From an uncultured Gammaproteobacteria bacterium (GTDB lineage: Bacteria; Pseudomonadota; Gammaproteobacteria; Pseudomonadales; Pseudohongiellaceae), in contig CAJWGN010000001.1 of NCBI GenBank assembly GCA_913031035.1, positions 2,923 through 66,922 on the forward strand: a stretch of DNA of 64,000 nt, read 5' to 3'. Below the pieces are notes generated by a model, which was given only the letters and a program-made list of their open reading frames with translations, was not told the DNA's origin and searched no databases. How positions within the stretch are numbered: the first letter of the stretch is position 1; each line of letters begins with the position of its first letter. A program made the translations under genes and the position numbers. Positions 44,006-64,000 of the stretch are shown one piece after another.

Positions 44006-44108
44006 ACCATTCTCCGTTGTTAGGGTGTTTTTCAAACCCTCTAGCTAGGTGACTCTATGGTGAAAGGTTACACTATAAGACTCGTTAGTCAGTCAGAATA
44101 TCAGTGAG

Positions 44109-46121
44109 ATGCCGTTGCCGAATAGAAATGTTTTAGGAATTGATGCGGGAGGAACGTTCACCGATTTCGTATTGGTGGAATTAGGCCCCGAGCTTCGAGT
44201 TAGGATACATAAAACCCTTTCAACTCCTGATGCGCCAGAAAAGGCAATTATTCAGGGAATGGAGTCGCTTGGGTTTGCTGATGACAAAGCGAGAGCCGCT
44301 TTGGTCATTGTTCATGGCAGCACGGTCGCCACTAACGCCACGTTGGAGGGGAAGTTTGCCCGAACAGTCTACATAAGCAATCGAGGCTTCAAGGATGTGC
44401 TTAGTTTGGGGCGGCAAACCAGGCCTAGCCTTTATGCTCTCGAATTTCCTGCACAGCCTGAGCCGGTGCCTTCTGAGCTGTGTTTAGAAACGGGGGGAAG
44501 GATAGCCGCTGATGGGTCTACCCTAGAGGACTTAACTGATTTAGATATAGAGACGTTAATTAGCGCTCTCAAAGAACTAAAGCCTGAAGCTGTTGCCGTC
44601 AATTTATTATTTTCATTCCTTGATGAAAGCTTCGAAAAAAAGATTGTTGATGCCATTGCCATTGCCAACCCTGATCTTTTTGTCTCACGTTCCTCAGAGG
44701 TCCTGCCGGTTTATAAAGAATATGAGCGTGGGATTGCGACTTGGCTAAACGCAAGCCTAGGGCCGGTTGTATCAGGCTACGTCGGGAGACTAAAAACAGC
44801 GCTACAAACACCAATCCAGATTATGCAGTCCAGCGGCGAAACAGTTTCCTCTGAGGCAGCCGCTAAGTCAGCCGTCAACTTATTGTTGTCAGGCCCAGCC
44901 GGCGGGCTAAATGCAATCAAATATATAGGCGAACAGATAGGCGAAGAAAATTTCATTAGCTTTGATATGGGCGGAACATCTACAGATGTCGCTTTAATCG
45001 AAGGTCGGATAGCGACAACCAACGAAGGCCATATTGGACCCTATCCAGTGGGAGTGCCTATGGTTGATATGCATACCATTGGCGCGGGCGGTGGTTCGAT
45101 TGCCTATATTGACAGGGGTGGAATTCTTCAAGTTGGACCAAAATCCGCCGGCGCGGCACCGGGCCCAGCTTGTTATGGACGCGGTGGAGCTGAGCCTACA
45201 GTGACCGATGCAAATCTAGTACTAGGGCGACTTGTGTCTGAATCTAAGCTAGCCGGTGATCTTTCGTTAAACTCGGGGCTTGCCAGAGGCGCGATTGAGC
45301 CGCTGGCCACGTCGTTAAGGTTGACCATTGAAGAAACGGCGCTAGGGATTATTCGCATTGCTAACCAGCATATGTCGAGGGCGTTGCGTTTAATTTCTGT
45401 AAATCGCGGCCATGACCCTAGAGATTTTCAGCTTGTTTGTTTTGGGGGTGCCGGCGGTTTACATGTTTGTGAACTCGCGGAATCGATGTTGATGGATAAA
45501 GCCATTGTCCCAATTCACGGTGGTGTGCTTTCAGCCTTGGGCATGGTGGTGGCAAAAAAAGGGAGACAATTTTCGAAAACTGTCAATATTTTGAAGCAAA
45601 AGGCAAAGCTTCCTGCCATTGAAAAAGCCTTTCGTGAATTAGAGCTCAGAGCGCTAGACGAGCTGCGTTCAGAGGGTATAACGGAACTCGAACTAGGTGA
45701 AATTAGCATCGAGCGGCGGGCTGATATACGTTATGTAGGGCAGTCTTTTACCCTAAGCGTTGCTTGGCAAGGCTTGGAGCAAACGTTTGCCAAGTTCGCG
45801 TCTTTGCACCAACAACGTTATGGCTATCAGCTCGATGCCCATACCGAAATTGTAAATATTCAAATTAAGCCAAAAGTCTTAGGAGAACAATTCGACCTGC
45901 CAACGCTAAAAATTTCTAAGCCGTGTAATGTTTCTTCGAATGTTAAGGTCTATGGTTATGAGAATAACGTAGCATGTTATGTGCGCTCAGATTTGTCTGC
46001 AGGCCAGAAGCTTCAGGGCCCTTGCATAGTTAAGGAATATTCGGCTACCACTTATCTCGCTGAGCACTGGTGTGCTAGGGTCGATGAGTTCGGAAATATC
46101 TGTTTAAAACGAAAGAACTAA
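44109..46121 (+). CDS. Hydantoinase/oxoprolinase A-type subunit (HyuA family)
   Basis: 670 aa with GIDAGGTFTDFV, HGSTVATNA and DMGGTSTDV (ASKHA fold, Hydantoinase_A). No HyuB-type partner is adjacent. Confidence 0.85.
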   Translation: MPLPNRNVLGIDAGGTFTDFVLVELGPELRVRIHKTLSTPDAPEKAIIQGMESLGFADDKARAALVIVHGSTVATNATLEGKFARTVYISNRGFKDVLSLGRQTRPSLYALEFPAQPEPVPSELCLETGGRIAADGSTLEDLTDLDIETLISALKELKPEAVAVNLLFSFLDESFEKKIVDAIAIANPDLFVSRSSEVLPVYKEYERGIATWLNASLGPVVSGYVGRLKTALQTPIQIMQSSGETVSSEAAAKSAVNLLLSGPAGGLNAIKYIGEQIGEENFISFDMGGTSTDVALIEGRIATTNEGHIGPYPVGVPMVDMHTIGAGGGSIAYIDRGGILQVGPKSAGAAPGPACYGRGGAEPTVTDANLVLGRLVSESKLAGDLSLNSGLARGAIEPLATSLRLTIEETALGIIRIANQHMSRALRLISVNRGHDPRDFQLVCFGGAGGLHVCELAESMLMDKAIVPIHGGVLSALGMVVAKKGRQFSKTVNILKQKAKLPAIEKAFRELELRALDELRSEGITELELGEISIERRADIRYVGQSFTLSVAWQGLEQTFAKFASLHQQRYGYQLDAHTEIVNIQIKPKVLGEQFDLPTLKISKPCNVSSNVKVYGYENNVACYVRSDLSAGQKLQGPCIVKEYSATTYLAEHWCARVDEFGNICLKRKN

Positions 46122-46324
46122 CAGCAATCAAGTTGAGACTAACTAGCGCAAAATAGAGCGAGGCAGGTTTACAGGCTAAATTCAGCGATGTTATAACGTA
46201 AAGTCTCGAATCCTAATGAACAATATTCGCAAGTGAGTTTGGGTTATTTGTTTCGATCATCGTATATCTCGCAAGGCAATAGGCATGTTGCCCTGTAGAG
46301 CTTCACACCGTCTCAGGCGTAGCC

Positions 46325-47728
46325 ATGATTATTAAGTGTAAACACCAATTTCTCTCGATAAGCTGTCTTTTAGCTACCCTGTTTTGTGGTAACGCTTTTG
46401 GGCAAGAAGAAGGTCGGGCGGAGGATGAAAGCGAATCTAAAAGTGAATCTGAAAGTATCGAACGGCCATTTAGACTGTATTTTATTGATAAGCCAATTGA
46501 AATTGATTCTAGCACTGATGACCGAGCTGTCTGGCCTATAACCAAAGCGGAAGTCATTTCCGAAGATGACCCTCAATTTATTCGGCGTATGGGCAGTATT
46601 CGTGAGTACACGGAGTCGGTTCAAGCAATAGAGTCAGAGGGGGGAGTCTGGGACAGGGGCCTAATCGAAGGTCTGGCAACCTTAGGGGAGCTCCAACAGC
46701 GTCAAGGCGACCATATTACAGCTATAAAGACTTTTGACCGGGTTGTTCACGTAAGCCGAATCAACAATGGGCTGCATACACTAGAGCAGATTCCTGCCTT
46801 AGAGCAGAAAATTGAAAGTTTTCTGGTATTGGGTGATTGGGAACAAGCGGACCTTTATTACAATTATATGTTTTACATCCAGCAAAAAGCCTATGGCAAC
46901 ACTGATCCTCGGATCATTCCAATGCTTGAGCGCTTGGCTCGCTGGAATCTCCGGGCTTTTAATATAGGTTTAGGGAAAAACCTAGGTGAGCGGCTTAACT
47001 CAGCTCAACTTTTATTTGATGCCGCTTCAAAAATGGTTGATGTCCATTTTGGCCGCTCTGATAAGCGCTACGTTGACTACCAACAAAGCATTGCAAACGC
47101 TTCTTATCTGGTGAGTCAGCACCCTGAGCTAATGAACGAAATGGAGAGGCCGGAGTTTCGTCTCAACCAAGACCAACTGCGGCGACGGTTGATAAGCTCT
47201 GAGCGATCGGCATCTCGAGGCTTTCAAGCAGGCGAGGAGGCACTTCTGAATATCCTCGCTCAACGACAAGTCGAAGATGGGCTATCGGTGCCTTTGGCCG
47301 AAGCGAATGCTAATTTAGGCGACTGGTATCTGATGTTTGGTCGGCGCAAAGCTGCTGTGCAGCAGTACGCTAGTGCTTGGCAGATTATTGCTGACTTGGA
47401 GGACCATCCGGAGCTTTTAGCAGAATTTTTTGGTCACGTAGTACCTCTGCCTTCTTTTCTCGACGCCCCCACCAGTTTAGTTTTTGCATCGGAGAAAGGA
47501 AAAGACACCAAGGAACTTGAAGTGGGTTTTGTGGATCTACGTTTTGATGTAACCGAAAACGGCGTTGTCCGAAATTTAGAAATAGTGAGTGGTGAAAGTG
47601 AAGAGAAAGCACTTATTTTGGGGAGACTGCAGCGGCAGGTTAGAAGTTCAGTGTTCCGGCCTATGCTTGAAGATGGGATTGCTATTAGGTCGATTGGCAA
47701 TCAGTTTCGATACCGGTATTGGTACTAA
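46325..47728 (+). CDS. Secreted TPR-like helical-repeat protein with a C-terminal TonB_C-like domain
   Basis: Has the signal peptide MIIKCKHQFLSISCLLATLFCGNAFG|Q and a helical-repeat middle region. The C-terminus VGFVDLRFDVTENGVVRNLEIVSGESEEKALILGRLQRQVRSSVFRPMLEDG follows the TonB C-terminal pattern (G.V.v.F.v...G.v.n..v.....). Confidence 0.5.
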   Translation: MIIKCKHQFLSISCLLATLFCGNAFGQEEGRAEDESESKSESESIERPFRLYFIDKPIEIDSSTDDRAVWPITKAEVISEDDPQFIRRMGSIREYTESVQAIESEGGVWDRGLIEGLATLGELQQRQGDHITAIKTFDRVVHVSRINNGLHTLEQIPALEQKIESFLVLGDWEQADLYYNYMFYIQQKAYGNTDPRIIPMLERLARWNLRAFNIGLGKNLGERLNSAQLLFDAASKMVDVHFGRSDKRYVDYQQSIANASYLVSQHPELMNEMERPEFRLNQDQLRRRLISSERSASRGFQAGEEALLNILAQRQVEDGLSVPLAEANANLGDWYLMFGRRKAAVQQYASAWQIIADLEDHPELLAEFFGHVVPLPSFLDAPTSLVFASEKGKDTKELEVGFVDLRFDVTENGVVRNLEIVSGESEEKALILGRLQRQVRSSVFRPMLEDGIAIRSIGNQFRYRYWY

Positions 47729-47947
47729 TGCACTGATATAAGGGTTAGCATTAATTGTTGTTTTTTATTCTGTTAAGACCCTGTTCAGCAGAGTTTTGAA
47801 ATACTGCAACGTGTAATCTGGCTACTATTTGCCAGTGCAATCTACTCGAAAATTATAGGTCGCTGTTCTCGTCAGATAGAGGCGTCCAAAATCATAAAAC
47901 GCTAATCAACTCTATGGGTTGTTAGTGCAGGCTTGGCGAAATAAATT

Positions 47948-49081
47948 ATGCAAAAATTAACGAATCAAATTCCACGTTTGGCCTTGTTAGCCGGCTTAAG
48001 TCTTGCGATTGTTGGTTGCCAGTCGAGCCAAAGCTCTAGCAGCTCTCCTCCTCCGCCTAGTCCGAGTTCCAGCTCGCCCTCAAGCCCGAGCCAATCGTCC
48101 CAATCTAGTAGCCAGAGTCAGTCTCAGAGTCAGTCGCAAAGCCAGAGTAGCTCTTCAGGATCTGCCGCCCAAACCCAAGGGGCAGGTCAGTCAGGCAGTT
48201 CGCAGGCGCAGGGCCAAGCTGGCACCTCTCAAGGGAGTGCGGGTGCGGGCAATACTTCTCCTGGTCAAAGTCAGGCTAATACCGCTGGCGCAGGTCAAGC
48301 CTCGGGTTCGTCTAGCTCTGGCGGGGGCGGTCAACAGCGAACCGTATCTTTCCCTCCGAGTATTGAAGGGTCTGGAGATACTCAAGGACAGGGTTCTGAG
48401 CAAGGGTCTCCAGAGGGCCAATCCGGGTCGAGCACAACGTCTGGTCAGGGTGCTGGTGGAGAATCACGTTTTCCAGGTGAGCAGGGCGGCTCAGGACAAG
48501 GACGAGATAGTTCGACTGGGGATTTAGGCAATGGACAAGGTGCCAGCAGTAGCGGTTCTGCTGGCAATTCAGGTCTTGGTAGGCCCCCTGGTGGGGATTA
48601 TAGTTTAGAAACCCTCCCAGAAGGCGTTGCAGGTGGCACAAGTGCCTCGGGAGGCAGTGGTGCTCTAACCAACGCTGAAAGAATTCAAGTTCTTGATGAG
48701 AGGCTTAGAAAAGGCTATGAAACCTTCGATGGCTATATTCTAAGTGAGCGTGAACGTGCTCAAAATGAAAGTAATGCTGCAGGTAGTTCAGCCCCAGGTG
48801 GTTCGGCAGGAGGAGGTGCTACAGGCGGCGCTCAAGGCCAGCCGCAAACACTTCCAGCAGAGGGTGAGACACCGAGTTCGGTGGCGACTTCGCAGAGACC
48901 AAACGCCAGCCAAGCTCCACCGGAAACGTTCCCAGCGCCAGATGACATTCCCAGTGGCAGAGATGATGATGTCGTTGCGAGGCAAATTCGCGAATTGGCT
49001 ATGAGCGAACCAGACCCGGAGTTGCGTGAAGCGATTTGGGATGAATATAGAAAATATACAGGTACTGGTGAAGGACAATGA
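47948..49081 (+). CDS. Lipoprotein with ~300 aa of S/G/Q/A low-complexity region and a small acidic helical C-terminal domain
   Basis: Has the lipobox LAIVG|C at residues ~19-24. The low-complexity region includes (SQ)6 encoded at 48107-48151. The C-terminus reads DDIPSGRDDDVVARQIRELAMSEPDPELREAIWDEYRKY. The stop overlaps the next start (ATGA). Confidence 0.6.
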   Translation: MQKLTNQIPRLALLAGLSLAIVGCQSSQSSSSSPPPPSPSSSSPSSPSQSSQSSSQSQSQSQSQSQSSSSGSAAQTQGAGQSGSSQAQGQAGTSQGSAGAGNTSPGQSQANTAGAGQASGSSSSGGGGQQRTVSFPPSIEGSGDTQGQGSEQGSPEGQSGSSTTSGQGAGGESRFPGEQGGSGQGRDSSTGDLGNGQGASSSGSAGNSGLGRPPGGDYSLETLPEGVAGGTSASGGSGALTNAERIQVLDERLRKGYETFDGYILSERERAQNESNAAGSSAPGGSAGGGATGGAQGQPQTLPAEGETPSSVATSQRPNASQAPPETFPAPDDIPSGRDDDVVARQIRELAMSEPDPELREAIWDEYRKYTGTGEGQ

Positions 49082-50262
49082 GAATTATGCTTAGAAATCT
49101 AACCACCCTTGTAACGGCCGCATTATTTTTAGTTTCTTGTGCAACACATACAGTTAAGTCGACTAGTTATACCCCGATTGTGCGGGATTCCCAAGATACG
49201 CCAGAATACTTACTGCTGGATGTTGGAGTAGCAGTCTTTGATCCTGGTTTAGATGAGATTAAAAAGAGCGAAGAAGACGTAACTAATCATGAAATTCGTG
49301 TAGCGGAGTCCCGCTATGCGCCGTTTTTACTTTCCGAAACACTTCAGCGATCCGCCAATTGGGGTATTGTGCGAGTCATGCCAAACCAAGAGAGCCCAAT
49401 GGATGTCTCCCTCAAAGGGACAATTCTCAGCTCCAATGGCGAGCAAATGGCGATTCGGATCGAAGTATCCGATTCCACCGGGCGGCAGTGGTATACAAAA
49501 GAGTATAAAGAAGAGGTTAGCAAATTCAGTTACGAGCCCAGTGAGCGCCAAAAAAATGATCCGTTCCAAGTTGTTTACAACACTATCGCGAACGATCTAC
49601 TCGAATACCGTAAGCGCAATTTAAAGAACGACGAGCTTACCGAAATCCGCACAGTGTCCGAAATGCTATTCGCCCAGAGATTCTCTCCTGATGTTTTTGG
49701 CCAGTACCTCATAAAAGATCAAAATGGAAACTTGCAAGTAGTTAGTTTGCCAGCGGAATCGGACCCACTCTTAGAAAGAGTGAGAGGAATTCGCGAACGT
49801 GATTTTATGTTTATTGATACCGTGCAGGATTACTACGCGACATACGTAAGACAAATGCGCTTACCTTATGATTCATGGCGTCAACAAAGCTATGAAGAAA
49901 CCATTGAAGTACGTGATTTGAAAAACTCTGCCCGGCGTCGATTTATTGCTGGTACGGCAGTTGTACTTGGCGGTTTAGCGGCGGCCTCTAGTGGCGGGAA
50001 TTACGCGACACAAACAGGTGGTGCTGTCGGGGTTGGAGCTGGCGCGGTTCTTATAAAAAGTGGATTCGATAAGCGGGCAGAAGCAAAAATTCACATGGAC
50101 GCTTTAGAAGAACTCGGTCAATCACTTGAAAATGAAGTCGCCCCAAGGGTTCTGGATTTAGATAATCGCAGTATTACATTAACCGGTTCCGTTGAAGAAC
50201 AATACGCGCAATGGAAAGAAGTGTTAGCAGATCTCTACGCAGCAGAAGTCGGCGGACCTTAG
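49078..50262 (+). CDS. Lipoprotein with a C-terminal Gly-zipper/hydrophobic segment
   Basis: Has the lipobox LFLVS|C and a later segment FIAGTAVVLGGLAAASSGGNYATQTGGAVGVGAGAVLI. An SD GAAGGA lies upstream. Confidence 0.6.
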   Translation: MRIMLRNLTTLVTAALFLVSCATHTVKSTSYTPIVRDSQDTPEYLLLDVGVAVFDPGLDEIKKSEEDVTNHEIRVAESRYAPFLLSETLQRSANWGIVRVMPNQESPMDVSLKGTILSSNGEQMAIRIEVSDSTGRQWYTKEYKEEVSKFSYEPSERQKNDPFQVVYNTIANDLLEYRKRNLKNDELTEIRTVSEMLFAQRFSPDVFGQYLIKDQNGNLQVVSLPAESDPLLERVRGIRERDFMFIDTVQDYYATYVRQMRLPYDSWRQQSYEETIEVRDLKNSARRRFIAGTAVVLGGLAAASSGGNYATQTGGAVGVGAGAVLIKSGFDKRAEAKIHMDALEELGQSLENEVAPRVLDLDNRSITLTGSVEEQYAQWKEVLADLYAAEVGGP

Positions 50263-50303
50263 ACGACCATAAGCAAACTTGATTCACCTGTGCAGTAACT
50301 AAT

Positions 50304-51830
50304 ATGTCTGATAAAAGAAGCGAAAGTGCTGACCTCGATCACGTCGATGACAATGCAGTATTTAAAACGGCTAGCCCTCAAGCTCAAATTGATAAGCCTC
50401 CAATAATTCTATGGCTTGGATTAGGTGGTTTATTGCTAGTGGCGTTATTGGTAGTTTTTGTCCTGCCAGTGCTGGTTACTGAATATGAGTTACCTTTAGA
50501 AAGGCGTGTTGATATTGCCGAGCTTGTGCCTTCACCAGCTTCCCAGCGAGAATTAGAAATATCCCCGTTTGAAGAAGCGCAGCGCTCTATTCAGAGAAAA
50601 AACGCACAAGACGTACTAGCCGAATTGCTGGAAATTCAAGGCGAGCTATCAGCCTTAGACGTTGTTGAATGGGGACAGCGTCAATTTGAAGAAGCGCTGT
50701 CTCAAGCAAGCACTGGCGATGAATATTATCGAAGCCAAGAATTTTTATTGGCAGTAGAAGTTTATGGGCTTGGGCGCGATACATTAGCGCAACTCAGAGA
50801 CTCTGTGCCAACGGTTATAGCTCAAACACTCATAGAAGCCGAGACTGCCTTCATAGCCGGTGATGCGTTGGTTGCAGAAGAAAAATATGCTTTGGCATTG
50901 CTTCTAGACGCATTTGATGAAGCTGCCCTAATTGGTTTAGAGCGCTCAAGAACATTAAGTGAGGTAGTTGATCTTTTAAACCAAACTGATGATCTGATCG
51001 AAGATGGCGGCCTCGAGCAAGCAAGAAACCTACTTGATCGCGTTATTAGTTTGGATGGTCGCAATTTAATTGCGCCGGCTAAAAAAACTGAAGTAGTCGC
51101 AATGATCCGCGAGCGAGAATTTTCTTCGATCATGTCTGCTGGTTATACAGCTTTAGAAACCGGCGACCCAGATGCAGCAATCACACAATTCGAAAATGCT
51201 GCGAACATGGGAATTAATCAAAACCAGGCGCTGGCGGCAATAACTCAAGCCGAAAATGAAATTGCAAACGCAGAAATAAATGTTCTTAGGCAGGCGATCG
51301 ACTCCGCCGAAAATGCCGAGCAATGGCAAGACGCCGTTGATAGCTATGACAAGGTTTTAATAATCGATTCAAATTTATCATTCGCAATTAATGGCAAGGA
51401 TTATGCTACTAAACGAGAAAGACTAAATTCCTTGTTGGTTGCAGCAAACAGTAATCCTCAGCGGCTTGCCGAAGATGACGTCTACCAGCAAACTATCGAT
51501 GTTTATTACACAGGCCGGGCTATCGATGAGCCAAGCTCAGTTTTGTCCACTCAACTCGATCTATTGGAAGGATATTTAGAAAACTCTCAGATACCAATTA
51601 ACGTCCAATTTATATCTGACAATTTGACCGATGTAACACTTCTTAGAATTGAACACGTCGGACTTTTTGAGCAGCAGAAAATGTCACTCAAGCCAGGTAA
51701 CTACGTAGCCGTTGGAAAGCGGTCCGGATACAGAGAGGTTAGAAAGGAATTTGTCGTGGGATTTGATCAAACTCCAAGCTTAGTCATAGTGCAATGTGAC
51801 GAGCCTATAGCTCCCAGCAATAGGCGATAA
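50304..51830 (+). CDS. Single-pass membrane protein with a periplasmic TPR-like region and a PEGA-like C-terminal beta domain
   Basis: Has the TM segment IILWLGLGGLLLVALLVVFVLPVLV after an acidic N-terminus. A long alanine/glutamate-rich helical-repeat region follows. The C-terminus reads LKPGNYVAVGKRSGYREVRKEFVVG. Confidence 0.55.
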   Translation: MSDKRSESADLDHVDDNAVFKTASPQAQIDKPPIILWLGLGGLLLVALLVVFVLPVLVTEYELPLERRVDIAELVPSPASQRELEISPFEEAQRSIQRKNAQDVLAELLEIQGELSALDVVEWGQRQFEEALSQASTGDEYYRSQEFLLAVEVYGLGRDTLAQLRDSVPTVIAQTLIEAETAFIAGDALVAEEKYALALLLDAFDEAALIGLERSRTLSEVVDLLNQTDDLIEDGGLEQARNLLDRVISLDGRNLIAPAKKTEVVAMIREREFSSIMSAGYTALETGDPDAAITQFENAANMGINQNQALAAITQAENEIANAEINVLRQAIDSAENAEQWQDAVDSYDKVLIIDSNLSFAINGKDYATKRERLNSLLVAANSNPQRLAEDDVYQQTIDVYYTGRAIDEPSSVLSTQLDLLEGYLENSQIPINVQFISDNLTDVTLLRIEHVGLFEQQKMSLKPGNYVAVGKRSGYREVRKEFVVGFDQTPSLVIVQCDEPIAPSNRR

Positions 51831-51832
51831 CG

Positions 51833-53911
51833 ATGGATAACCCTAACGTTAAGAATGAGCCAAACGGCTCTAACGACCCAATAGTACCAATAGATTTTAC
51901 ACCTAATGAAAATAAGGCAGCCCGTGTTTCGTTTAAGCTGAAACCTATTCATTTTATTCTGGCCGCATTTTTCAGTATTTCAGGGTTTGCCGCTTGGTTT
52001 GTATTGACGGCGAAATCTGTTTCCATCGAAGCGAATCCAGTTACCGCTGTAGTTGAAATTAGCGGTGGCTTAAAATTCAAGTTGGGGCCACGTTATTTAA
52101 TTCGCTCAGGCCGCTACGATATTAAATTAGTAAACGAGGGTTATCACGATAGCGAATCTATATTGGTGGTTAGTTCAGATCAGACTCAGACCCACCTTTA
52201 TGAAATGCAGAAGCTTCCGGGGATCTTAAGTTTCGCTACTAAGGATCTAATCGCCGCTAGGGTGCAAGTCGATGGCATAGACCTCGGTGAGACGCCATTA
52301 ATGTCTATATTGGTTGAGGCCGGCGAGAGGCAGCTAACCGTATCAAAGGACCGTTACCTAGACTTTGCGCAGACAATCTTAGTGGAGGGGCGGTCGGTAG
52401 AGCAAAGCTTCGAGGCTCAATTAGAGCCTGCCTGGGCAACCGTCAGCTTGACGACAAGTCCTGCTGGAGCCGACGTCATAGTGGATGGCGAACTTATTGG
52501 TACTACTCCTATGAATGCGAAAATCATTCAAGGCCAGCGCGACCTCACCCTGAAGCTCGCAGGGCATAAGGCATGGCAAGAAGATTTTGGTATTTTTGCG
52601 GGAGAAGATTTTGTTATTCCTGATATAGAATTGGAGCCGGCAGATGGACTAGTCTTCATTCAGTCCTCACCATCGTCAGCCTCGGTGACTATAGGAGGAG
52701 AGTTTAAGGGTTTAACGCCACTTGAGGTTTCCTTGGCTCCGGACATTGATCACGAAATCACCTTTTTTAAAAATGGATACAACTCAAGTAAACGCAGCAT
52801 TAGAACTCAGGCCAATCAAGAAAGTGGGGTCAGTGTTAGCTTGGATCCTGTGCTGGCTAATGTTCAGGTAATTAGTCAGCCTGAAGATGCGCAGCTTTAT
52901 GTTAATGGAGAGCTTCGTGGTCTCGCAAATCAAACGCTTGAGCTAATAGCAGCAAGTCAACAAATCGAAGTACGTAAGGCAGGCTATGTCCCTTTTACAG
53001 CGGAATTCACCTCAAGACCTGGCCTGGATCAGGTAATCCGAGTCAGTCTTAAGTCTCTAGAGCAGGCCCGACTTGACCAGATCGAACCGGTTATTAGTAA
53101 CGCTGCTGGTCAGTCGCTTAAACTTTTCTATCCATCCGCTTTTACAATGGGGGCATCTCGCCGTGAAGCCGGTCGCAGGTCAAATGAAAACCTGCGAGAG
53201 ATAAAGTTGGAACGACCATTTTATATAAGCTATAAAGAAGTGACCAACGCTGAATTCAGACTGTTCGATAGCGAGCATTCCTCTGGTATTTTACAGGGTT
53301 TGAGCTTAAACAATGAGGCTCAGCCCGTGGTTAGACTCAGTTGGACACAGGCCGCGCTTTTCTCTAACTGGCTCAGCGAGCAAGAGTCTATTGAGCCTTT
53401 TTACGATGTTTTAGACGGCGACGTTGTTGGTTATAACTCAGAATCTACCGGTTACAGGATGCCCTCTGAAGCTGAATGGGCATGGGCCGCAAGGGCTGAT
53501 GGTAGCGGAAATCTCTTGAAATATCCGTGGGGCACACAGCTGCCTCCGCCAGACAACGCTGGAAACTTTGCAGATATTACGGCGAGAAATTATCTGGGAG
53601 AGGTCATGTTTGATTACGAAGATGGCTATTTGGCAACGGCTCCGGTGGCATCCTTTACTGCTAACCAAAATGATCTGTTTGACATGGCAGGTAATGTTTC
53701 GGAATGGGTTCATGACTACTACGGTTCAGTTGGATCAGCCAATGGCGCTGAAGTTGACCCGCTGGGTTCTGTAAACGGTCAGTTTCACACAATTCGCGGC
53801 TCTAGCTGGGCTCATGGTTCTGTTTCTGAGATACGGCTATCGTTTAGAGATTTCGGTGAAGAGCCACGAGACGATGTTGGATTTAGAATCGCTAGGTATT
53901 TAGAGGAGTGA
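51833..53911 (+). CDS. Membrane-anchored protein with 5 PEGA-like repeats and a C-terminal FGE-sulfatase (SUMF1/PvdO-like) domain lacking the catalytic cysteines
   Basis: Has the TM segment IHFILAAFFSISGFAAWFVLTA and PEGA-type repeats (VDGIDLGETPL, VDGELIGTTPM, IGGEFKGLTPL, VNGELRGLANQ ...). FGE-fold blocks are PVVRLSWTQAALFSNWLS, GYRMPSEAEWAWAAR, GNVSEWVHDYY, IRGSSWAH and VGFRIARY. Confidence 0.8.
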   Translation: MDNPNVKNEPNGSNDPIVPIDFTPNENKAARVSFKLKPIHFILAAFFSISGFAAWFVLTAKSVSIEANPVTAVVEISGGLKFKLGPRYLIRSGRYDIKLVNEGYHDSESILVVSSDQTQTHLYEMQKLPGILSFATKDLIAARVQVDGIDLGETPLMSILVEAGERQLTVSKDRYLDFAQTILVEGRSVEQSFEAQLEPAWATVSLTTSPAGADVIVDGELIGTTPMNAKIIQGQRDLTLKLAGHKAWQEDFGIFAGEDFVIPDIELEPADGLVFIQSSPSSASVTIGGEFKGLTPLEVSLAPDIDHEITFFKNGYNSSKRSIRTQANQESGVSVSLDPVLANVQVISQPEDAQLYVNGELRGLANQTLELIAASQQIEVRKAGYVPFTAEFTSRPGLDQVIRVSLKSLEQARLDQIEPVISNAAGQSLKLFYPSAFTMGASRREAGRRSNENLREIKLERPFYISYKEVTNAEFRLFDSEHSSGILQGLSLNNEAQPVVRLSWTQAALFSNWLSEQESIEPFYDVLDGDVVGYNSESTGYRMPSEAEWAWAARADGSGNLLKYPWGTQLPPPDNAGNFADITARNYLGEVMFDYEDGYLATAPVASFTANQNDLFDMAGNVSEWVHDYYGSVGSANGAEVDPLGSVNGQFHTIRGSSWAHGSVSEIRLSFRDFGEEPRDDVGFRIARYLEE

Positions 53912-54180
53912 TGATGAGAAATTTAACTCACGTTTACGCGGTTTTGCTTGTATTGGCTAGCGCGAATGTAATGGCACAAGATCAGACTCCAAATGAGCCT
54001 AGTGTAATAGATTTTGAGGAGCCTGAAGTGTCAAGTGAGCTAGTGCTAGATGAAGAGCCAGCCACCGAAAACGGCTCAATAGAATCACAGCAAGAAGATG
54101 ACGCACAAGCATCTCAAAGGTTTATCCCGACCGAAGAGATATCACAGGATTTAGGTGTTTCTTTTCCTGCAAACATATAA
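53911..54180 (+). CDS. Small secreted acidic protein (~89 aa)
   Basis: Has the signal peptide MMRNLTHVYAVLLVLASANVMA|Q and a mature part rich in E/D. The start overlaps or abuts the upstream TGA (GTG 53908, ATG 53911 or ATG 53914), with AGGAG at 53902-53906. Confidence 0.5.
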   Translation: MMRNLTHVYAVLLVLASANVMAQDQTPNEPSVIDFEEPEVSSELVLDEEPATENGSIESQQEDDAQASQRFIPTEEISQDLGVSFPANI

Positions 54181-54241
54181 CGATTTTGGGATTTTTTGCC
54201 ACGCTAAAAAAAGCGGCTTATAAACGAGAAAAGGATTGAGT

Positions 54242-55048
54242 ATGAAGCAAGGTTTGTTGTCTGAAGCTATGTGGCAGTTAGTGCCTCTTATTGTTGCGCT
54301 AATCGTCGTACATGCGGCTTATGTGACAGTGATTCGACCTACCGCAGAGGCTGTTCAGGAGCAGCAGAGCTTCCTGCAGGAATCCAATCCAGATTTTGTT
54401 CCAGAACGGTCCGTCTATATTATTTTGAAAGACCTTGAGCAAGAGACCTGCATAATATTATTTCTGTGGGCCTCGGCTCTTATAGGCATGAAAACTCAGC
54501 AGACCATTAGGCAACGTGCACTACTTGATCAAACTCTTATTCAATTGTCTGATGGTATGAGTATTCTACCAGAAGACGCAAGAAACTACGCTCGACCAGT
54601 TCAGGCCCTAGGTGAGCGTGAAAAGCAATATTTGCTCCCACGGGCTCTGTTGGCAGGTCTGCAGCGCTTTCAAAGTACGCGCAACATTCAGGACGTATCA
54701 ACTATTGTAAAAGATACCTGCGAGTCTGAAGCTGATCGCATGGAAACAGAATTGTCTATCGTGCGCTACATAGCTTGGGCAATCCCCTCCATAGGTTTCT
54801 TGGGAACGGTTCGCGGTATCGGAACAGCTCTAGGGCAAGCTTATCAAGCAGTTGCCGGTGATATTGTAGGGGTGACAGTGAGTCTTGGGGTTGCCTTTAA
54901 TTCAACCTTTGTAGCCTTGGTTGTTAGCATTTTGTTGACCTTCGTTTTGTACCAGCTGCAATTGCTTCAGGACCGGCTCGTATTGGACTGCCAGCACTAC
55001 TGCGATGAGAAGCTAATTAGCAACCTACAGGTTCCGGACAGAGCATAG
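54242..55048 (+). CDS. MotA/TolQ/ExbB-family proton channel protein (4-TM topology)
   Basis: The C-terminal block VRYIAWAIPSIGFLGTVRGIGTALGQAY...VSLGVAFNSTFVALVVSILLTFVLYQL matches the MotA_ExbB signature (aP.lGLLGTV.G...aF ... AL.tT..GL.vA). Two additional N-terminal TM segments are present. ATG 54242 is preceded by AAGGA. Confidence 0.8.
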   Translation: MKQGLLSEAMWQLVPLIVALIVVHAAYVTVIRPTAEAVQEQQSFLQESNPDFVPERSVYIILKDLEQETCIILFLWASALIGMKTQQTIRQRALLDQTLIQLSDGMSILPEDARNYARPVQALGEREKQYLLPRALLAGLQRFQSTRNIQDVSTIVKDTCESEADRMETELSIVRYIAWAIPSIGFLGTVRGIGTALGQAYQAVAGDIVGVTVSLGVAFNSTFVALVVSILLTFVLYQLQLLQDRLVLDCQHYCDEKLISNLQVPDRA

Positions 55049-55050
55049 CC

Positions 55051-56409
55051 ATGAGTTTAAAAATAATAGAACTTAACGACGCAGGGATAAAAGTTGGGGA
55101 CCATGGTGGCATCGTCGCTCATAGTCCTGGTTTTGCTCTGGTGGTTGGTAGCGAGCTTTTATTGGGTGAGCGTGCAGAGAAGCAAGCGCGCTTACAGCCG
55201 ACTAAAAGCTATAATAAATACTGGTATGAACTCAGTATGGAACCCTTAAATCACGGCAATCATCTCAGGCATACAGCGGATATAGCGTTTGCCCATCTTT
55301 TGCATCTCGCCGAAATAGGAGAAATTGAGTCTGATGTTCTTCTTGCCGTACCGGGAAGTTTTAGTTCTCAGCAGCTAGCGATACTTTTGGGGTTAGCGAA
55401 GCAAAGCCCTATCAATCCGATAGGCGTAGTCGACTCAGGTCTTGTTGCTGGGATTGCCGCTGGGATTTGTGAATCCTCTTTATTTATCGACTTGCAACTC
55501 CATCAGATTGTTGTAACCAAACTTAACTTCAGCAATGGCCTTTTAACCTCTGAATCAGTTGTTCAAATCCCAGGTGTGGGCAGTCAGAATTTCATTAATT
55601 TGATGATGCAGAAAGCTACCGACTCCTTTATTGAACAATGCCGTTTTAATCCTCAGCATAATGCTGAGTATGAGCAGCTTCTCTATAGCCAGTTGCCGCT
55701 TTGGCTCAGCCAATACGATGATTCTCAGACTAATTTAATGTTGGAGCTCAAAACTAGTGATGCCTTGCACGTTGCGAAAATGCCTAAGGAAGGTCTTATC
55801 GCTAGTTTGCAAAGTCACTATAAGAAAATCAACCAAGAGCTTGAACCCTTGCTTAGCGATCAATACTCTACTCTTATTCTTAATAAAGGCTTGGCATCAT
55901 TGCCCGGCTATATGGCTAGTTTACCTGAGTTCAAATCCATCAAAGTTTTGCAAGGCCATGAGATAATTGAAGCCTGCCTGGACCATGTAGATAGAATAGT
56001 GACGCCGGGAGAGGAAATTCATTTAGTAAGATCTCTTCCTGTTGCCGGCGGATCGAATTCAACCGGTGCTCATGGACAAATTGAATTAGACGGCGGTGAG
56101 GCACCTACCCATCTCGTTTATCGTAGCAGAGCTGTGGCGCTTGGGGATATTCAAATTCGTAATCCTGACAATGAAAAAGACGGCTCAGGGACCAGCTCCA
56201 AAACAATCAATATCTCAGCGGGCGATTTGCCGACCTTGCTTGGAGAGACTCATGTTAATAGCTCAGGCGCTTTTATTGAGAGCGGTGAACTTGAGTTTTA
56301 TTTGAATTCAAAACCGGTAAAAGGGCTACAGAAAATTTCTCTCGGCGACCAGATTCAATTCGGCATACAAGGTGATGTATTGACCGCAATTCAGGTGCAA
56401 AATGTCTAG
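55051..56409 (+). CDS. Cytoplasmic Hsp70/actin-fold (ASKHA-like) protein with degenerate nucleotide-binding motifs and a C-terminal FHA-like beta region
   Basis: There is no signal peptide or TM segment. [42 protein letters not shown] parallels Hsp70 [51 protein letters not shown] and [16 protein letters not shown] sit where GIDLGTT and DLGGGTFDVS are expected. Confidence 0.45.
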   Translation: [452 protein letters not shown]

Positions 56410-57499
56410 AAAGTCGAGACGTAGAATATCCACTCCCTTGAGCCTTGCCTTCTTGGATGTGATGTTTTGCGGCTTTGGTGCGGTAATTCTAATTTTCCTT
56501 ATTATGGATCACTCGAGTATCACCGCCAAAAACGATGCTAATCCGAGTTTGGCAGCCGAAATTAATCTTCTAGAGGAAGAAGTGTTAGAAGGAGAGCTTG
56601 GCTTGGTGAGAGTGCGTAATACGCTTTCTGATACTTCCTTCGAAGTTGTTGAAGCTCAGGGTCTCGCGCGACAGGTTCAAGATCAAATTGACACCTTTCT
56701 ACAAGAGCTGGCATCGATGGAAAACTCCAGTATCGCCAGTGTCGAGAGTATTGAAAAACTACGGTCGGACATTAAGGCCCTTGAAGAAGAACTATTGAGA
56801 CTGCAGGCTAGCGCTTTTGAGCAAGAAGGTAATAATGTTAGGCAGTACATTGGTGACGGTAATCGACAATATTTGTCTGGGTTCTTCTTAGGAGGGCAGC
56901 GGATTCTAATTTTGGTAGACAGCTCCACTAGTATGCTGGATAGCACGCTAATTAACATTATCAGAACTCGAAACTTGTCAGATGAGCGGAAAAGGCAGGC
57001 GCCAAAGTGGCGTCGTGTAGTCAAAACTATCGATTGGATAAGCACTCAGCTGCCTGTAACCAGCCGCTATCAAATTTGGTCCTTTAGCAACAGCTACACA
57101 AGTGCCATCCCGGGAAGCGAAGCGCGGTGGTTGGAAGTGGCTGACCGAGATCAGTTAAACCAAGCAATTATCAATATTGGCGATACGATCCCCAACAATG
57201 GCACAAATATGGAACAGGTATTTCGCGGGGTCGCCAATATGAATCCGCCCCCGGACAATATATTTCTTATAACCGACGGTCTACCAACGCTAGACGATCG
57301 TGGTGATCCTAATGGGCTGGTTACTCCGAATCAGCGTGCAGAGCTGTTTGAAAATGCTGTCACTGAGTTACCTAGAGGAATACCGGTAAATGTTATTCTA
57401 ATGCCTCTGGAAGGTGATCCTTCTGCCTCTGCAGTGTTTTGGGAACTGGCTCAGGTTTCGAAAGGGTCCTATTTGACCCCTTCTAAAGATTGGCCTTAG
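56402..57499 (+). CDS. TolR/ExbD-like TM anchor - coiled coil - periplasmic vWA (MIDAS) domain protein, paralogue 1
   Basis: The N-terminus MSRKSRRRISTPLSLAFLDVMFCGFGAVILIFLIM resembles TolR ..NIVPLLDVLLVLLLIFM, with the conserved Asp. A heptad-rich ~100 aa follows. vWA motifs are ILILVDSSTSM (DxSxS) and IFLITDGLPT. It overlaps the upstream gene by 8 nt. Confidence 0.7.
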   Translation: MSRKSRRRISTPLSLAFLDVMFCGFGAVILIFLIMDHSSITAKNDANPSLAAEINLLEEEVLEGELGLVRVRNTLSDTSFEVVEAQGLARQVQDQIDTFLQELASMENSSIASVESIEKLRSDIKALEEELLRLQASAFEQEGNNVRQYIGDGNRQYLSGFFLGGQRILILVDSSTSMLDSTLINIIRTRNLSDERKRQAPKWRRVVKTIDWISTQLPVTSRYQIWSFSNSYTSAIPGSEARWLEVADRDQLNQAIINIGDTIPNNGTNMEQVFRGVANMNPPPDNIFLITDGLPTLDDRGDPNGLVTPNQRAELFENAVTELPRGIPVNVILMPLEGDPSASAVFWELAQVSKGSYLTPSKDWP

Positions 57500-57597
57500 C
57501 CGATGTTGTGTATTTTGGAGAGCATTGAATTCGGTATCAATCTTGCTCTATATGAAAAGTCGAACAGCCAGGTTCTTCGAGAGCGTGAGGAGTAAAA

Positions 57598-58602
57598 ATG
57601 AGACGTAGAGACCGCGAATCTGATTCCTTTACGGTGTCTTTTTTGGACGTGGCGTCCTGTGGTTTCGGGGCGATGATAATCTTGTTGATAATCACCAAGA
57701 TTAATGACCCAGTGACTTTGGAAATAGTCGATGTCCCGCCGGAGGGCAGAGTTATCGAACTGCAAGAATCTTTGTTTGCGATTCGGGGCGAAACCACAAT
57801 ACTGAATCGTGAACTCAACGCAAAGCATGAGCAACTGTCTGCACTCACCGATAGAGTCGCACGGCTACGCCGAGATCTAAATGACATCGAGGGGCGTTAT
57901 CAGACAACAACTGAGCTGTCCGACGAAACCACCGATGAAGCCGGCAAGCTGGCGATTGCTCAGCAATCCTTAACTGACGAAATGCAGCGCCTGCTGGCAA
58001 ATAGCCCAGCAGCAGAGAACAACGCCGTTGGCGGTGTGCCTGTGGATAGCGAATATATTATTTTTATTATCGATACATCAGGCAGTATGTTTAATAATCC
58101 TAGTTGGAATAAAATGCTGGGTGTGATCGACAATACTCTTGATGTATATCCCGAAGTTAAGGGGATTCAGATAATGAACGATATGGGAGACTATATGTTC
58201 AATTCCTACGCTGGCAAGTGGATGCCAGATACGCCTTCCACCCGAAGCCGAATTATCTCCACGCTTCGGAATTGGCAACCTTACAGTAATAGCAGCCCTG
58301 TAGAAGGTGTAACCCGGGCTATCAATACATTCTATTCCCCCGATAAGAAAATCAGCATTTACGTCCTTGGAGACGATTTTCAGCCAGGGGGCTCTATTCG
58401 CAATGTGCTTCAAACCATAGATAGAATCAATGTAGAAGACGCCAATGGGAATAGGCTAGTCAGAATTCATGGGATTGGTTTCCCGGTCATTTTCGACTTT
58501 CCGCAGCGCTTCAGACAGAGTGTTTATCGCTATGCCACGTTAATGCGCGAGATGACGTCACGAAATGGTGGTACATTTGTAGGTCTCAACGACTTCAGAT
58601 AG
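57598..58602 (+). CDS. TolR/ExbD-like TM anchor - coiled coil - periplasmic vWA (MIDAS) domain protein, paralogue 2
   Basis: The N-terminus MRRRDRESDSFTVSFLDVASCGFGAMIILLIIT is followed by a coiled-coil-like segment. vWA motifs are IIFIIDTSGSM (DxSxS) and ...LMREMTSRNGGTFVGL. An SD GAGGAG lies upstream. Confidence 0.7.
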   Translation: MRRRDRESDSFTVSFLDVASCGFGAMIILLIITKINDPVTLEIVDVPPEGRVIELQESLFAIRGETTILNRELNAKHEQLSALTDRVARLRRDLNDIEGRYQTTTELSDETTDEAGKLAIAQQSLTDEMQRLLANSPAAENNAVGGVPVDSEYIIFIIDTSGSMFNNPSWNKMLGVIDNTLDVYPEVKGIQIMNDMGDYMFNSYAGKWMPDTPSTRSRIISTLRNWQPYSNSSPVEGVTRAINTFYSPDKKISIYVLGDDFQPGGSIRNVLQTIDRINVEDANGNRLVRIHGIGFPVIFDFPQRFRQSVYRYATLMREMTSRNGGTFVGLNDFR

Positions 58603-58665
58603 CTTTGCTTGGACGTTTCAGTACCCTTAGCGTTTGGTTTTGAGTTCAATTGAGTCAAAAGGATA

Positions 58666-59274
58666 ATGAATAAACACTTAAGTAAAATCGTTCTAGTACC
58701 CATGATCGTTCTTTTTCTAGGGAACTGTGGTGTAAATAACGTGGTGATAGAAGGGCAGTTTCCTACGCCCAATATTAGCAAAATGCCTGTCTATGTAGCG
58801 GTGATCTACGACCAAGCTTTGAGGGATTTTTCTTACCTTGAATACACTGAAACAGGATCCGAAGAATTTAATATCCAAAGCGGTGCCTCTCACGTGGAGT
58901 TGTTTAATTCGATAACACCGGCGATGTTTGAGCAGGTAATTTTTGTCGACACCTTAGAAGAAGCTCAAATCGCTGGAGTCGATGCAATATTCGCCCCTGC
59001 TATTGAGGAGTTTCAACTGGCGCTGCCAGCGAAAACAAAGCTGGACGTCTATGAAGTGTGGATAAAATATAATATGCGACTTCTCACCGCTCAAGGAGAC
59101 TACATCGCTGACTGGGTTTTGACGTCCTACGGCAAGACACCAACCGAATCATTTCAAACGGTAGAAGGGGCAATTAATGATGCGGCTGTGATCGCCTTAA
59201 GAGACCTTGCCTCCAGCTTTTCGCTAAGTTTTAGCGATGTACCTGAAGTCCGAGATTGGCTGGATCAGCAATAA
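58666..59274 (+). CDS. Lipoprotein, unknown family (202 aa)
   Basis: Has the lipobox LFLGN|C and an SD AAAGGA upstream. Confidence 0.6.
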   Translation: MNKHLSKIVLVPMIVLFLGNCGVNNVVIEGQFPTPNISKMPVYVAVIYDQALRDFSYLEYTETGSEEFNIQSGASHVELFNSITPAMFEQVIFVDTLEEAQIAGVDAIFAPAIEEFQLALPAKTKLDVYEVWIKYNMRLLTAQGDYIADWVLTSYGKTPTESFQTVEGAINDAAVIALRDLASSFSLSFSDVPEVRDWLDQQ

Positions 59275-59302
59275 AGCTGATAACCAGTTAAGAGAGTCAA
59301 AA

Positions 59303-59980
59303 ATGAATCCTAATCCTATTTTTAAAGAAGGCCGCTTCAAATTTTTGTTGTTGATGGCGTTAAGCTTTGTAGTTTCTTGCACTAGCACTACAGTTGATGA
59401 GTTTAGGCAGGGTGAAACTGGAATCAGCGATGATGAAACCGTCGTTGTTCTTGGCCGACGTCAAGCCAGCGACTATGAAACGAGGTCAGAGTTTATTGAA
59501 TGCGTGGGCGATAAAATGGCTCGGGGGGACAACGCGCTCAATATTATTCCTGAACAAGAGTTTATAGATGCTATGTTTCCCTGGTTTGAGCCTCGCACTG
59601 CGCCACTCAGAACTCAAGACTTAGCTAAGCTAATGTCAGAAGATGTGGTGGCAGATAAAATGGGTGAATTTGGCATTCGTTATATTGTCTGGGTCGATGG
59701 TTTTACTGAGACATCAGGAAGAACGGGATCAATATCTTGTACTGTTGGGCCAGGCGGAGCTGGATGCTTTGGCTTTGGTACTTGGGAAGACGATGCCAAT
59801 TTTGACGCTAGAATATGGGACGTTGGCTCATTCACCAATGTTGGGACCATCAATACCGATGCGTCGGGCCAATCATATTTGCCGGCATTGGTTATTCCAA
59901 TACCTCTAATTGCTCGAGTGGAAGCGAACGCTTGTTCGCGGCTGGCAGATCAGCTTAAAGGATTTGTTAATGGCAGCTAG
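59303..59980 (+). CDS. Lipoprotein, unknown family (225 aa)
   Basis: Has the lipobox SFVVS|C after MNPNPIFKEGRFKFLLLMAL. The start was chosen at ATG 59303; the track ORF begins at 59237 inside the upstream gene. Confidence 0.6.
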   Translation: MNPNPIFKEGRFKFLLLMALSFVVSCTSTTVDEFRQGETGISDDETVVVLGRRQASDYETRSEFIECVGDKMARGDNALNIIPEQEFIDAMFPWFEPRTAPLRTQDLAKLMSEDVVADKMGEFGIRYIVWVDGFTETSGRTGSISCTVGPGGAGCFGFGTWEDDANFDARIWDVGSFTNVGTINTDASGQSYLPALVIPIPLIARVEANACSRLADQLKGFVNGS

Positions 59981-60013
59981 CTGCCCATTCAATGAAGAAA
60001 TTCAGGTGTCATC

Positions 60014-61528: not shown

Positions 61529-61701
61529 ATAAAGTGGATAGCTAAGCCAGGTTACTCACCGCTATCGACACTCCCGTCCTTCCAATTAAAGACTATATTG
61601 TCCTAAATCTTTGTTTTTACTCATCGCAAGGTTAAACTGGATGCTTCATTTTGCAGCGTCTATGGACTCCTATTTAGGCGTTCTTTATAGGAAACAGATC
61701 G

Positions 61702-63495: not shown

Positions 63496-63577
63496 ATGAG
63501 AAATACTCAAAGCACTCATTGTGGCGCCTGCCCTAGGTTGAAATTACTCTTAAATAGCAAGTCAGCTACCGCTCGTA

Positions 63578-64000
63578 ATGAATAAATTGCAGCAGGAGAA
63601 GTTTCTAATCATAGGGCCGTCTTGGGTGGGCGATATGGTGATGGCTCAGGCTTTATTTATCCGCCTCAAACAGAATAGCCCTGACAGTGAAATTACGGTT
63701 ATTGCTCCAGCATGGGCTATTCCCGTCCTGGAGCGAATGCCTGAAGTAAACAATAGCCAAAGCTTGTCACTAGCGCATGGTGAACTCGGCCTTCTCAAGA
63801 GAAGACAAATCGGCAAGTCTCTAAAGGATCAGGGTTTTACGACAGCTATTGTTTTGCCCAACTCTTTCAAATCTGCACTTATCCCCTATCATGCGCAAAT
63901 ACCGGTAAGAATAGGTTGGCGTGGGGAATGGAGAAAGCCGCTTCTTACCGATTGCAGAAAACTGGACAAGGAAAAATTTCCGCTAATGGTGCAAAGATTT
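63578..64000 (+). CDS. waaF: ADP-heptose:LPS heptosyltransferase II (GT9), N-terminal fragment running off the window
   Basis: My own translation is MNKLQQEKFLIIGPSWVGDMVMAQALFIRLKQNSPDSEITVIAPAWAIPVLERMPEV...AIVLPNSFKSALIP..A.IP.RIGWRGE.R..LL.D, the classic WaaF N-terminus. The frame is open to the window end. Confidence 0.85.
   Translation, partial: MNKLQQEKFLIIGPSWVGDMVMAQALFIRLKQNSPDSEITVIAPAWAIPVLERMPEVNNSQSLSLAHGELGLLKRRQIGKSLKDQGFTTAIVLPNSFKSALIPYHAQIPVRIGWRGEWRKPLLTDCRKLDKEKFPLMVQRF

Follow-up and report, generated by a model that had tools for sequence, protein, structure and literature searches.

TagR of P. aeruginosa is a periplasmic protein in which residues 127–359 belong to the superfamily of the formylglycine-generating enzyme (FGE)-sulfatase domain. 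With the outer-membrane lipoprotein TagQ it makes up a 2:2 complex, and modelling suggests that a loop of its FGE domain binds the periplasmic domain of PpkA, the kinase that phosphorylates the FHA protein Fha1 (PMC13713981). The periplasmic domain of PpkA is a vWA domain (PMC3224232). FGE-type domains have been regarded as binding modules without enzymatic activity, frequently joined to vWA components, and PEGA has been classed as a wall (peptidoglycan)-associating domain that typically follows a transmembrane segment (PMC7159879). PorK and its counterparts GldK and GldJ, of the type IX secretion system and gliding machinery, are non-catalytic FGE-fold structural partners of a proton-driven motor of the 5:2 type (PorLM/GldLM). 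A further motor core, consisting of a tolQ-like gene together with a transpore-helix (TPH) vWA gene pair, has been predicted by Williams-Jones et al. (Mol Biol Evol 2025; PMC12204202), a paper in which FGE, PEGA and sulfatase-type components have zero occurrences. Here, we describe g05, a PEGA–FGE fusion gene that adjoins such a core in a 64,000-nucleotide (nt) stretch of contig CAJWGN010000001.1 from an uncultured gammaproteobacterium, referred to in the following as the window. We found g05 to be an obligatory, translationally linked member of the predicted TolQ-like/TPH-vWA proton motor cluster, and its product is, in our view, probably a binding arm of the motor machine that spans the periplasm and has no enzymatic role, with TagR and PorK as the closest precedents. 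A literature search for PEGA combined with FGE-sulfatase found nothing relevant.

Architecture of g05 and its former catalytic site

The gene and the parts of its product are located in the window as follows.

51833–53911, + strand: the whole g05 PEGA–FGE gene, encoding 692 amino acids without a cysteine, with exact open reading frame borders
51947–52009, + strand: single transmembrane helix, residues 39–59 (helix 38–59 in the AlphaFold2 model), from hydropathy, AlphaFold2 and the basic residues ahead of it
52013–53047, + strand: predicted periplasmic stalk of five PEGA-type seven-strand beta-sandwiches, from Pfam PEGA and AlphaFold2 (predicted local distance difference test, pLDDT, >90)
53090–53899, + strand: FGE-fold (C-type-lectin-like) head, residues 420–689, from PF03781, the domain model and Foldseek
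53153–53308, + strand: head segment with most of the 17 family-specific invariant residues, residues 441–492, from the family comparison
53795–53848, + strand: degenerate catalytic loop, R-G-S-S-W-A-H-G-S-V-S-E-I-R-L-S-F-R, residues 655–672, from two alignments and the family columns

Pfam matched the protein to PEGA (PF08308, E 3.1e-43, 146 bits against a cut-off of 20.8), with four repeats above threshold, and to FGE-sulfatase (PF03781, E 1.8e-36, 126.6 bits against a cut-off of 23.3) over residues 437–688. A full-length AlphaFold2 model, made with 64 relatives as input, had a mean pLDDT of 91.6. In this model, residues 1–36 form a disordered cytoplasmic tail, and the transmembrane helix is followed by five stalk domains (residues 61–124, 130–195, 201–266, 272–336 and 341–405), a short helix and the FGE-fold head. 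A model of the head alone, with 114 relatives as input, reached a pLDDT of 96.6 and a predicted template-modelling score of 0.93. The structural count of five and the Pfam count of four differ because the first PEGA repeat is too divergent for Pfam. Since basic residues precede the sole transmembrane segment in the hydropathy profile, the N-terminus is most likely cytoplasmic and the remainder periplasmic. The models predict that g05 is a bitopic inner-membrane protein, with a cytoplasmic tail, a periplasmic PEGA stalk and an FGE-fold head. Conservation is highest in the head, whose mean identity to the family representatives is 48%, versus ≈32% for the stalk.

The degenerate loop was compared with true FGEs in two ways. 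When g05 was aligned with the S. coelicolor FGE, the L-C-H-D-S-Y-C stretch of the enzyme fell opposite W-(gap)-A-H-G-S-V-(gap)-S, so that the catalytic Cys positions are taken by Ala 660 and a gap. When the family profile was aligned with human FGE, C336 fell within a two-residue deletion and C341 opposite V664. Both alignments agree that the loop is Cys-free and two residues shorter than in FGE, and it is Cys-free in all 144 representatives of the family (144/144), which were clustered at ≤50% mutual identity. The equivalent of human W299, in the G-N-x-W-E-W motif, is Ser 623 in g05; the family has Ala here in 92/144 and Ser in 47/144 representatives. The Ser of the G-G-S motif is retained. 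These results bear out the first-pass annotation of the window, which was made from the letters alone and had described one N-terminal transmembrane segment, five PEGA repeats and a C-terminal FGE/SUMF1 fold in which the catalytic Cys pair is missing: hydropathy and the AlphaFold2 helix agree on the segment, the model separates five seven-strand domains, the fold is found by Pfam and in the model alike, and alignment with the S. coelicolor and human enzymes exposed no Cys pair.

Column counts in the profile alignment showed strongly conserved residues D581, D597, D617, E624 and N451/E452 opposite human N259, D273, N293, E300 and E130. We take the latter to be ligands of the two structural calcium sites in human FGE, and the g05 head would then keep residues at the calcium-site positions. 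The only Cys that is common in the family, present in 123/144 representatives, lies in a helix with the pattern A-x-x-Y-C-N-W-L-S and is replaced by Ser 511 in g05. It presumably corresponds to human C235, whose disulfide partner we assume to be the Cys just after the catalytic loop. This partner is absent in the family, and we read position 511 as a buried structural site, not a catalytic one.

Database entries for relatives of g05 carry the names 'PEGA domain-containing protein', 'SUMF1/EgtB/PvdO family nonheme iron enzyme' or sulfatase-activating enzyme. The last of these names and the Pfam FGE-sulfatase match are the sole support for a conventional maturase, that is, an FGE that generates formylglycine in sulfatases, whereas both the catalytic Cys pair and the W299 equivalent are missing in every family member. 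Neither the 64-kb window nor 35 orthologous loci yielded a sulfatase homologue in a phmmer search with one of the genome's own sulfatases as the query; the genome has six sulfatase genes, all on contigs other than that of the window. It also has two canonical FGEs elsewhere, which carry G-N-V-W-E-W and the Cys pair, and one of them adjoins two sulfatase genes, one of which has a C-S-P-S-R motif when translated. The canonical FGE regions of the genome are the following.

G000:C48:7451-11553
G000:C12:26916-27758

With the Cys pair and the neighbouring Trp lost, g05 is not a formylglycine-generating enzyme, and with no sulfatase linked to it in the window or the related loci, we reject a maturase role, which we regard as next to impossible. 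The two findings that would have overturned the first-pass annotation, a catalytic Cys pair on alignment and a linked sulfatase in related genomes, were thus both absent. This negative part of our reading is well supported at the sequence level.

Foldseek placed the head closer to PvdO, TvpA and true FGEs (query template-modelling score, TMq, 0.65–0.71) than to PorK (0.50–0.54), with PvdO as the best structural match (E 1.9e-17, TMq 0.70). The family profile matched human FGE (E 2e-35), PorK (4e-29), TvpA (1e-26) and PvdO (2e-25). GldK (TIGR03525) was the best NCBIfam model, with E 3.1e-29, covering residues 497–687 only and reaching 102.5 bits against a cut-off of 350. The PvdO (NF051459, 61.7/500), EgtB (23/360) and SenA (22.9/420) models were likewise far below their cut-offs. 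These scores suggest that the head is a generic Cys-less FGE/C-type-lectin-like fold and not a PorK orthologue. Compared with the FGEs of human (SUMF1), S. coelicolor and T. curvata, g05 shares the fold (TMq 0.65–0.70) and the residues at the calcium-site positions, but it lacks the Cys pair and a linked sulfatase, has the shorter loop and Ser/Ala in place of Trp, and is fused to PEGA domains and a transmembrane helix.

Within the head, 17 positions were conserved only in the g05 family when 114 family domains were compared with 30 other Cys-less FGE-like domains. Eleven of the 17 fall in residues 441–492: R443, R444, G447, R449, N451, R461, N472, F478, H482, G485 and L492. We also considered, and rejected, the possibility that g05 is a variable protein of a diversity-generating retroelement (TvpA/Mtd-type): no direct repeat of ≥40 nt was found in 44000–64000, and strong conservation extends over the C-terminal part of the head, which would be hypervariable in such a protein.

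A predicted proton motor cluster around g05

The genes that adjoin g05 or accompany it in the motor cluster are listed here.

50304–51830, + strand: g04, a transmembrane TPR protein; its stop codon lies 2 nt ahead of the g05 start
53908–54180, + strand: g06, a small exported acidic protein; the gene overlaps the g05 stop
54236–55048, + strand: g07, a MotA/ExbB/TolQ-like channel (PF01618, E 9.9e-15), adjacent to g05
56402–58602, + strand: g09 (56402–57499) and g10 (57598–58602), paired vWA proteins of the motor (g09: VWA_2, E 1.2e-5; synteny)

The gene order is g02 (lipoprotein), g03 (lipoprotein), g04 (transmembrane TPR), g05 (PEGA–FGE), [g06], g07 (MotA-like), [g08, Hsp70-like], g09 (vWA) and g10 (vWA). 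We compared 28 loci from named genomes, which comprised several gammaproteobacterial families, Desulfobacteraceae and other deltaproteobacterial metagenome-assembled genomes, Sneathiella (an alphaproteobacterium) and sponge-associated lineages. The order from g02 to g10 was kept in ≈24/28 loci and was invariant wherever the contig allows. The exceptions were one Ca. Foliamicus genome with an insertion sequence (IS) element immediately behind g05/g06, a locus with a 4.7-kb insert, and one distant paralogue without a cluster. In the Ca. Foliamicus locus, a DDE transposase (L034:12618-14267) directly follows g05/g06, in the place expected for the MotA-like gene, and the cluster seems to have been disrupted there by an insertion or rearrangement.

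The association also held in the converse direction. Among 249 other sampled Gammaproteobacteria, an orthologue of g07 was found in 20 (≈8%), and g05 was present in all 20 (19/19 when genome G079 is excluded). Of the 22 motor gene copies in this sample, 17 had g05 directly upstream, at a distance of ≈150–430 nt. The names of close relatives point to Pseudohongiella/Pseudohongiellaceae (marine Gammaproteobacteria) as the group to which the window belongs. Within the genus, all 24 genomes had a g05 match, which was full-length in 21, and in 1 of the 16 other sampled families of the order there was a clear orthologue (45% identity), accompanied by all 13 cluster genes in unchanged order. A phmmer search of 1.84 billion cluster representatives returned 1256 proteins related to g05 at E ≤1e-30. 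The co-occurrence of g05 with the MotA-like and vWA genes, which the first-pass annotation had named as a check, is therefore tight.

In this cluster, g07 is the tolQ-like gene, and g09 and g10 are the heterologous pair of vWA genes, of the predicted TolQ-like/TPH-vWA motors (PMC12204202), whereas the constant g05, g04 and the two lipoprotein genes upstream are not described in that paper.

DNA nearly identical to the locus was found in at least 19 marine metagenome runs. Contigs from two marine metatranscriptome libraries cover most of 46000–62000 at ≥99% identity, and some of them span the g04/g05 junction (51280–51961 and 51756–52223) and g05/g06/g07 (53484–54457).

Several observations on individual loci were made along the way. 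One gammaproteobacterial genome (G231) has two g05–g07 pairs (G231:C1:7730-10850 and G231:C2:31632-34327), which suggests two paralogous clusters in one genome. The g05 orthologue is in two consecutive pieces in two other genomes (G067:C188:2159-4059 and G169:C51:50478-52613), which may reflect a frameshift, an assembly error or a split gene. In the window, the cluster is followed by a GspE/PilB-type ATPase gene (61702–63495), which is also found in a relative (L108, 88% identical); it is probably outside the conserved cluster, since it was unmatched in the 28 distant loci.

Cytoplasmic modules, the g06 peptide and the tail motif

The g05 family has two length classes. Members of the ≈800-residue class carry a domain of ≈110 residues, expected to be cytoplasmic, ahead of the transmembrane helix, and in 6 of 8 sequences this domain gave weak FHA or YscD-type matches (Pfam E 1e-5 to 0.1). 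The g04 orthologue has an N-terminal Ser/Thr kinase in 7/28 loci (Pkinase E 2.9e-38 in L034), and g05 is of the long class in 7/7 of these. The loci in question are L034 (Ca. Foliamicus; 6884–9211 and 9590–12058), L022, L028, L031, L035, L037 and L038. One locus has an FHA-like domain without a kinase, and all other loci with a kinase-less g04 have a short g05. In the window's genome, g04 has no kinase and g05 no FHA-like domain. The cytoplasmic kinase and FHA-like modules have apparently been lost here while the periplasmic parts were kept, which speaks for an independent role of the periplasmic parts.

A related arrangement occurs in a genome of the same order (G028), where a separate 808-residue protein, consisting of a Ser/Thr kinase, a transmembrane helix, PEGA and an FGE-like domain, is encoded beside PP2C and FHA genes. 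Its FGE-like domain is Cys-less and matches the g05 family profile at a probability of 99.9%. Like g05, such PEGA/FGE receptor kinases (G028; Atlas cluster) have PEGA and then a Cys-less FGE-like domain after the transmembrane helix, but their kinase is on the same chain, only one PEGA is above the Pfam threshold, and the head identity is ≈30%. In the g05 system, which is set in a motor cluster, the stalk consists of five domains and the kinase, when present, is on g04.

The g06 protein ends in [FLI]-P-x-D-I-COOH in 36/37 other loci with a readable tail. The window has F-P-A-N-I, in which the otherwise invariant Asp is replaced by Asn. This tail is most likely a real clade variant, because a relative (L104, with a g05 that is 88% identical) has F-P-A-N-I as well. 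The only differences at otherwise conserved positions that go with the change from FPxDI to FPANI are C511S and L520I/V in g05, an M-to-T change in g07 and an L-to-M change in g09. At the start of g06, a metatranscriptome contig (run X25) has a G>T change at 53910, which turns the g05 stop codon TGA into a Leu codon, with a stop at the next codon. As this change also removes the listed GTG start of g06 (window 53908–53916), the g06 start is probably the ATG at 53911 or 53914.

The tail of g05 ahead of the transmembrane helix contains a conserved motif.

51881–51904, + strand: predicted cytoplasmic motif I-V-P-I-D-F-T-P of g05, residues 17–24, with the consensus [IVL]-x-P-x-x-[FY]-x-P

Among the 144 representatives, the four consensus columns have I/V/L in 116, P in 99, F/Y in 108 and P in 104. 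The motif or a close variant was found in every examined locus that combines a short g05 with the Hsp70-like g08, was not evident in four long, FHA-bearing g05 proteins with g08 (L022, L035, L037 and L038), and was absent from 5/5 loci without g08. This cytoplasmic motif may be a docking site, with g08 as a candidate partner. The association between motif and g08 is a lead and not a test, since the sample is small and the genomes are related.

Alternative explanations for the g05 product

As a binding arm of the motor machine, g05 would be expected to work as follows. The rigid PEGA stalk would carry the head across the periplasm, toward the wall and the outer membrane, with a reach of roughly 15–20 nm (five domains of 3.5–4 nm each). 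The head would be a protein- or peptide-binding module that acts with the periplasmic TPR part of g04, and its likely partners would be the two motor axle proteins, through their vWA heads, the outer-membrane lipoproteins of the cluster and/or the exported, FPxDI-tailed g06 peptide. In lineages with a g04 kinase and a g05 FHA-like domain, the pair would also signal to the cytoplasm, whereas in the window's genome, where both cytoplasmic modules are gone, the periplasmic structural role alone would be left.

The precedents match this picture in part. TagR, which belongs to the threonine-phosphorylation pathway TagQRST-PpkA-Fha1 of the H1 type VI secretion system, uses its FGE-superfamily core for contacts with other proteins rather than for catalysis, alongside the lipoprotein TagQ, the vWA-bearing kinase PpkA and the FHA protein Fha1. 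The g05 cluster family shares this parts list, namely the FGE-like head, vWA and lipoproteins, with the kinase and FHA only in lineages other than that of the window. TagR differs in being soluble and without a PEGA stalk, and it regulates a type VI secretion system; in the g05 cluster, vWA is on the motor axle proteins and not on a kinase, and the cluster in the window's genome is kinase-free. PorK is an outer-membrane lipoprotein in a ring with PorN, whereas g05 is anchored by a transmembrane helix, has no lipidation Cys and carries five PEGA domains. The parallel with PorK/GldK that the first-pass annotation had drawn is functional at best: membership of g05 in that family was ruled out by score, structure and anchor type. 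Models of GldM and GldN (TIGR03517, TIGR03523) gave no match in the 92.5%-complete genome, in a search that gave none in control genomes either. The same annotation had cited PvdO as a non-catalytic FGE fold, which is not a safe example, since NCBIfam NF051459 names PvdO a dihydropyoverdine dehydrogenase. Because Cys-less PvdO is named an enzyme, the absence of Cys alone is no proof against catalysis. Of the annotation's proposal that g05 is a scaffold or ligand-binding element rather than an enzyme, the part that stands is that g05 is not an FGE, given the lost Cys and Trp and the missing sulfatase, while the binding role is argued from context and analogy.

A closely related explanation is that the PEGA–FGE ectodomain primarily senses a ligand, such as envelope damage, a wall fragment or an exported peptide, and controls the motor, so that the copy in the window would be a relic without cytoplasmic output. 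This overlaps with a binding arm and differs mainly in emphasis, signalling instead of mechanics. It would fit the kinase–PEGA–FGE protein beside the PP2C and FHA genes in G028, with its Cys-less head, the g04 kinase and g05 FHA-like domain in 7/28 loci, the TagQRST-PpkA precedent of TagR, and the conserved exported peptide gene directly downstream of g05. However, most members, including all 21 full-length orthologues of the genus, have neither kinase nor FHA-like domain while their ectodomain is still strongly conserved, the FHA-like domains lack a convincing canonical signature, and no output domain is found in the window's genome; we consider a primarily sensory role possible but improbable. 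A second partly overlapping alternative is that the PEGA stalk binds peptidoglycan and makes g05 a static anchor of the motor. The vWA axle proteins have no wall-binding domain of the OmpA-like or TolR-like type found in MotB, TolR and ExbD, and g05 would then supply the anchoring. The proposed wall association of PEGA domains after a transmembrane segment (PMC7159879), the constant adjacency to the MotA-like gene and the prediction of this motor type without tolR/exbD genes (PMC12204202) would all agree with such an anchor. Set against this, peptidoglycan binding by PEGA is itself a prediction and not an experimental result, the head rather than the stalk is the most conserved part, and Pfam and NCBIfam found no known wall-binding motif in g05, which makes a static anchor unlikely.

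It is also conceivable that the head could be an enzyme of the SUMF1/EgtB/PvdO type that works without Cys and whose substrate is in the periplasm, such as the g06 peptide or a lipoprotein. NCBI names relatives of g05 accordingly, the best structural match, PvdO, is named a dehydrogenase, and the family-specific invariant residues R443, R444, R449, H482 and N472 lie in one segment. In EgtB and OvoA, the iron ligands are supplied by a separate DinB-type domain. Pfam found no such domain in g05, the PvdO, EgtB and SenA models scored far below their cut-offs, and no cofactor-binding motif was recognized in the protein; we regard a Cys-independent enzyme as a minor rival with very little probability.

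The binding arm that we favour is itself open to several objections. The putative partners of the head are proposed from context and analogy alone, and the likeness to TagR comprises a shared superfamily and a parts list only. Other chemistry is possible, as the example of PvdO indicates, and the cluster of conserved Arg and His residues might just as well form an active site or bind a small molecule. The head of g05 has a net charge of −19, where the family median is +1; we had considered that its charge might complement that of the acidic g06 peptide, but this is unsupported because the head itself is so acidic. No compensating change was evident in g05 for the clade-specific D-to-N change in the g06 tail, in a search that has no power because the tail change is one evolutionary event. 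Finally, the metatranscriptome contigs are consistent with co-transcription of the cluster, but contigs from RNA libraries may hold contaminating DNA.

A more detailed version of the binding arm is speculative, and we put it forward with considerable doubt. Within what would be a novel type of trans-envelope machine, the head may have turned from a peptide-binding enzyme into a receptor that, together with the g04 TPR part, grips the FPxDI-COOH tail of the co-translated g06 or the vWA heads of the axle proteins, much like TagR in its modelled contact with the vWA domain of PpkA, coupling proton-driven rotation to the outer-membrane lipoprotein complex. The I-x-P-x-x-F-x-P motif would dock the Hsp70-like g08, so that g05 would link three compartments.

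On the present evidence, the database names 'sulfatase-activating enzyme' and 'nonheme iron enzyme' are wrong for g05. The gene is instead a constant part of a widespread predicted proton-motor machine in marine and soil bacteria of gamma-, alpha- and deltaproteobacterial lineages, of which only the three-gene motor core is in print. That the motor is always accompanied by a putative periplasm-spanning arm with an FGE fold, by a TPR protein as its partner and by a peptide that is exported leads to concrete binding hypotheses, for which TagR, TagQ and the vWA domain of PpkA provide an experimentally studied model. If the proposed contacts of the head and the docking of g08 are correct, g05 would physically join all three compartments. 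As an envelope protein-binding module, g05 would be the third independent case of an FGE fold used in this way, after PorK/GldK and TagR.

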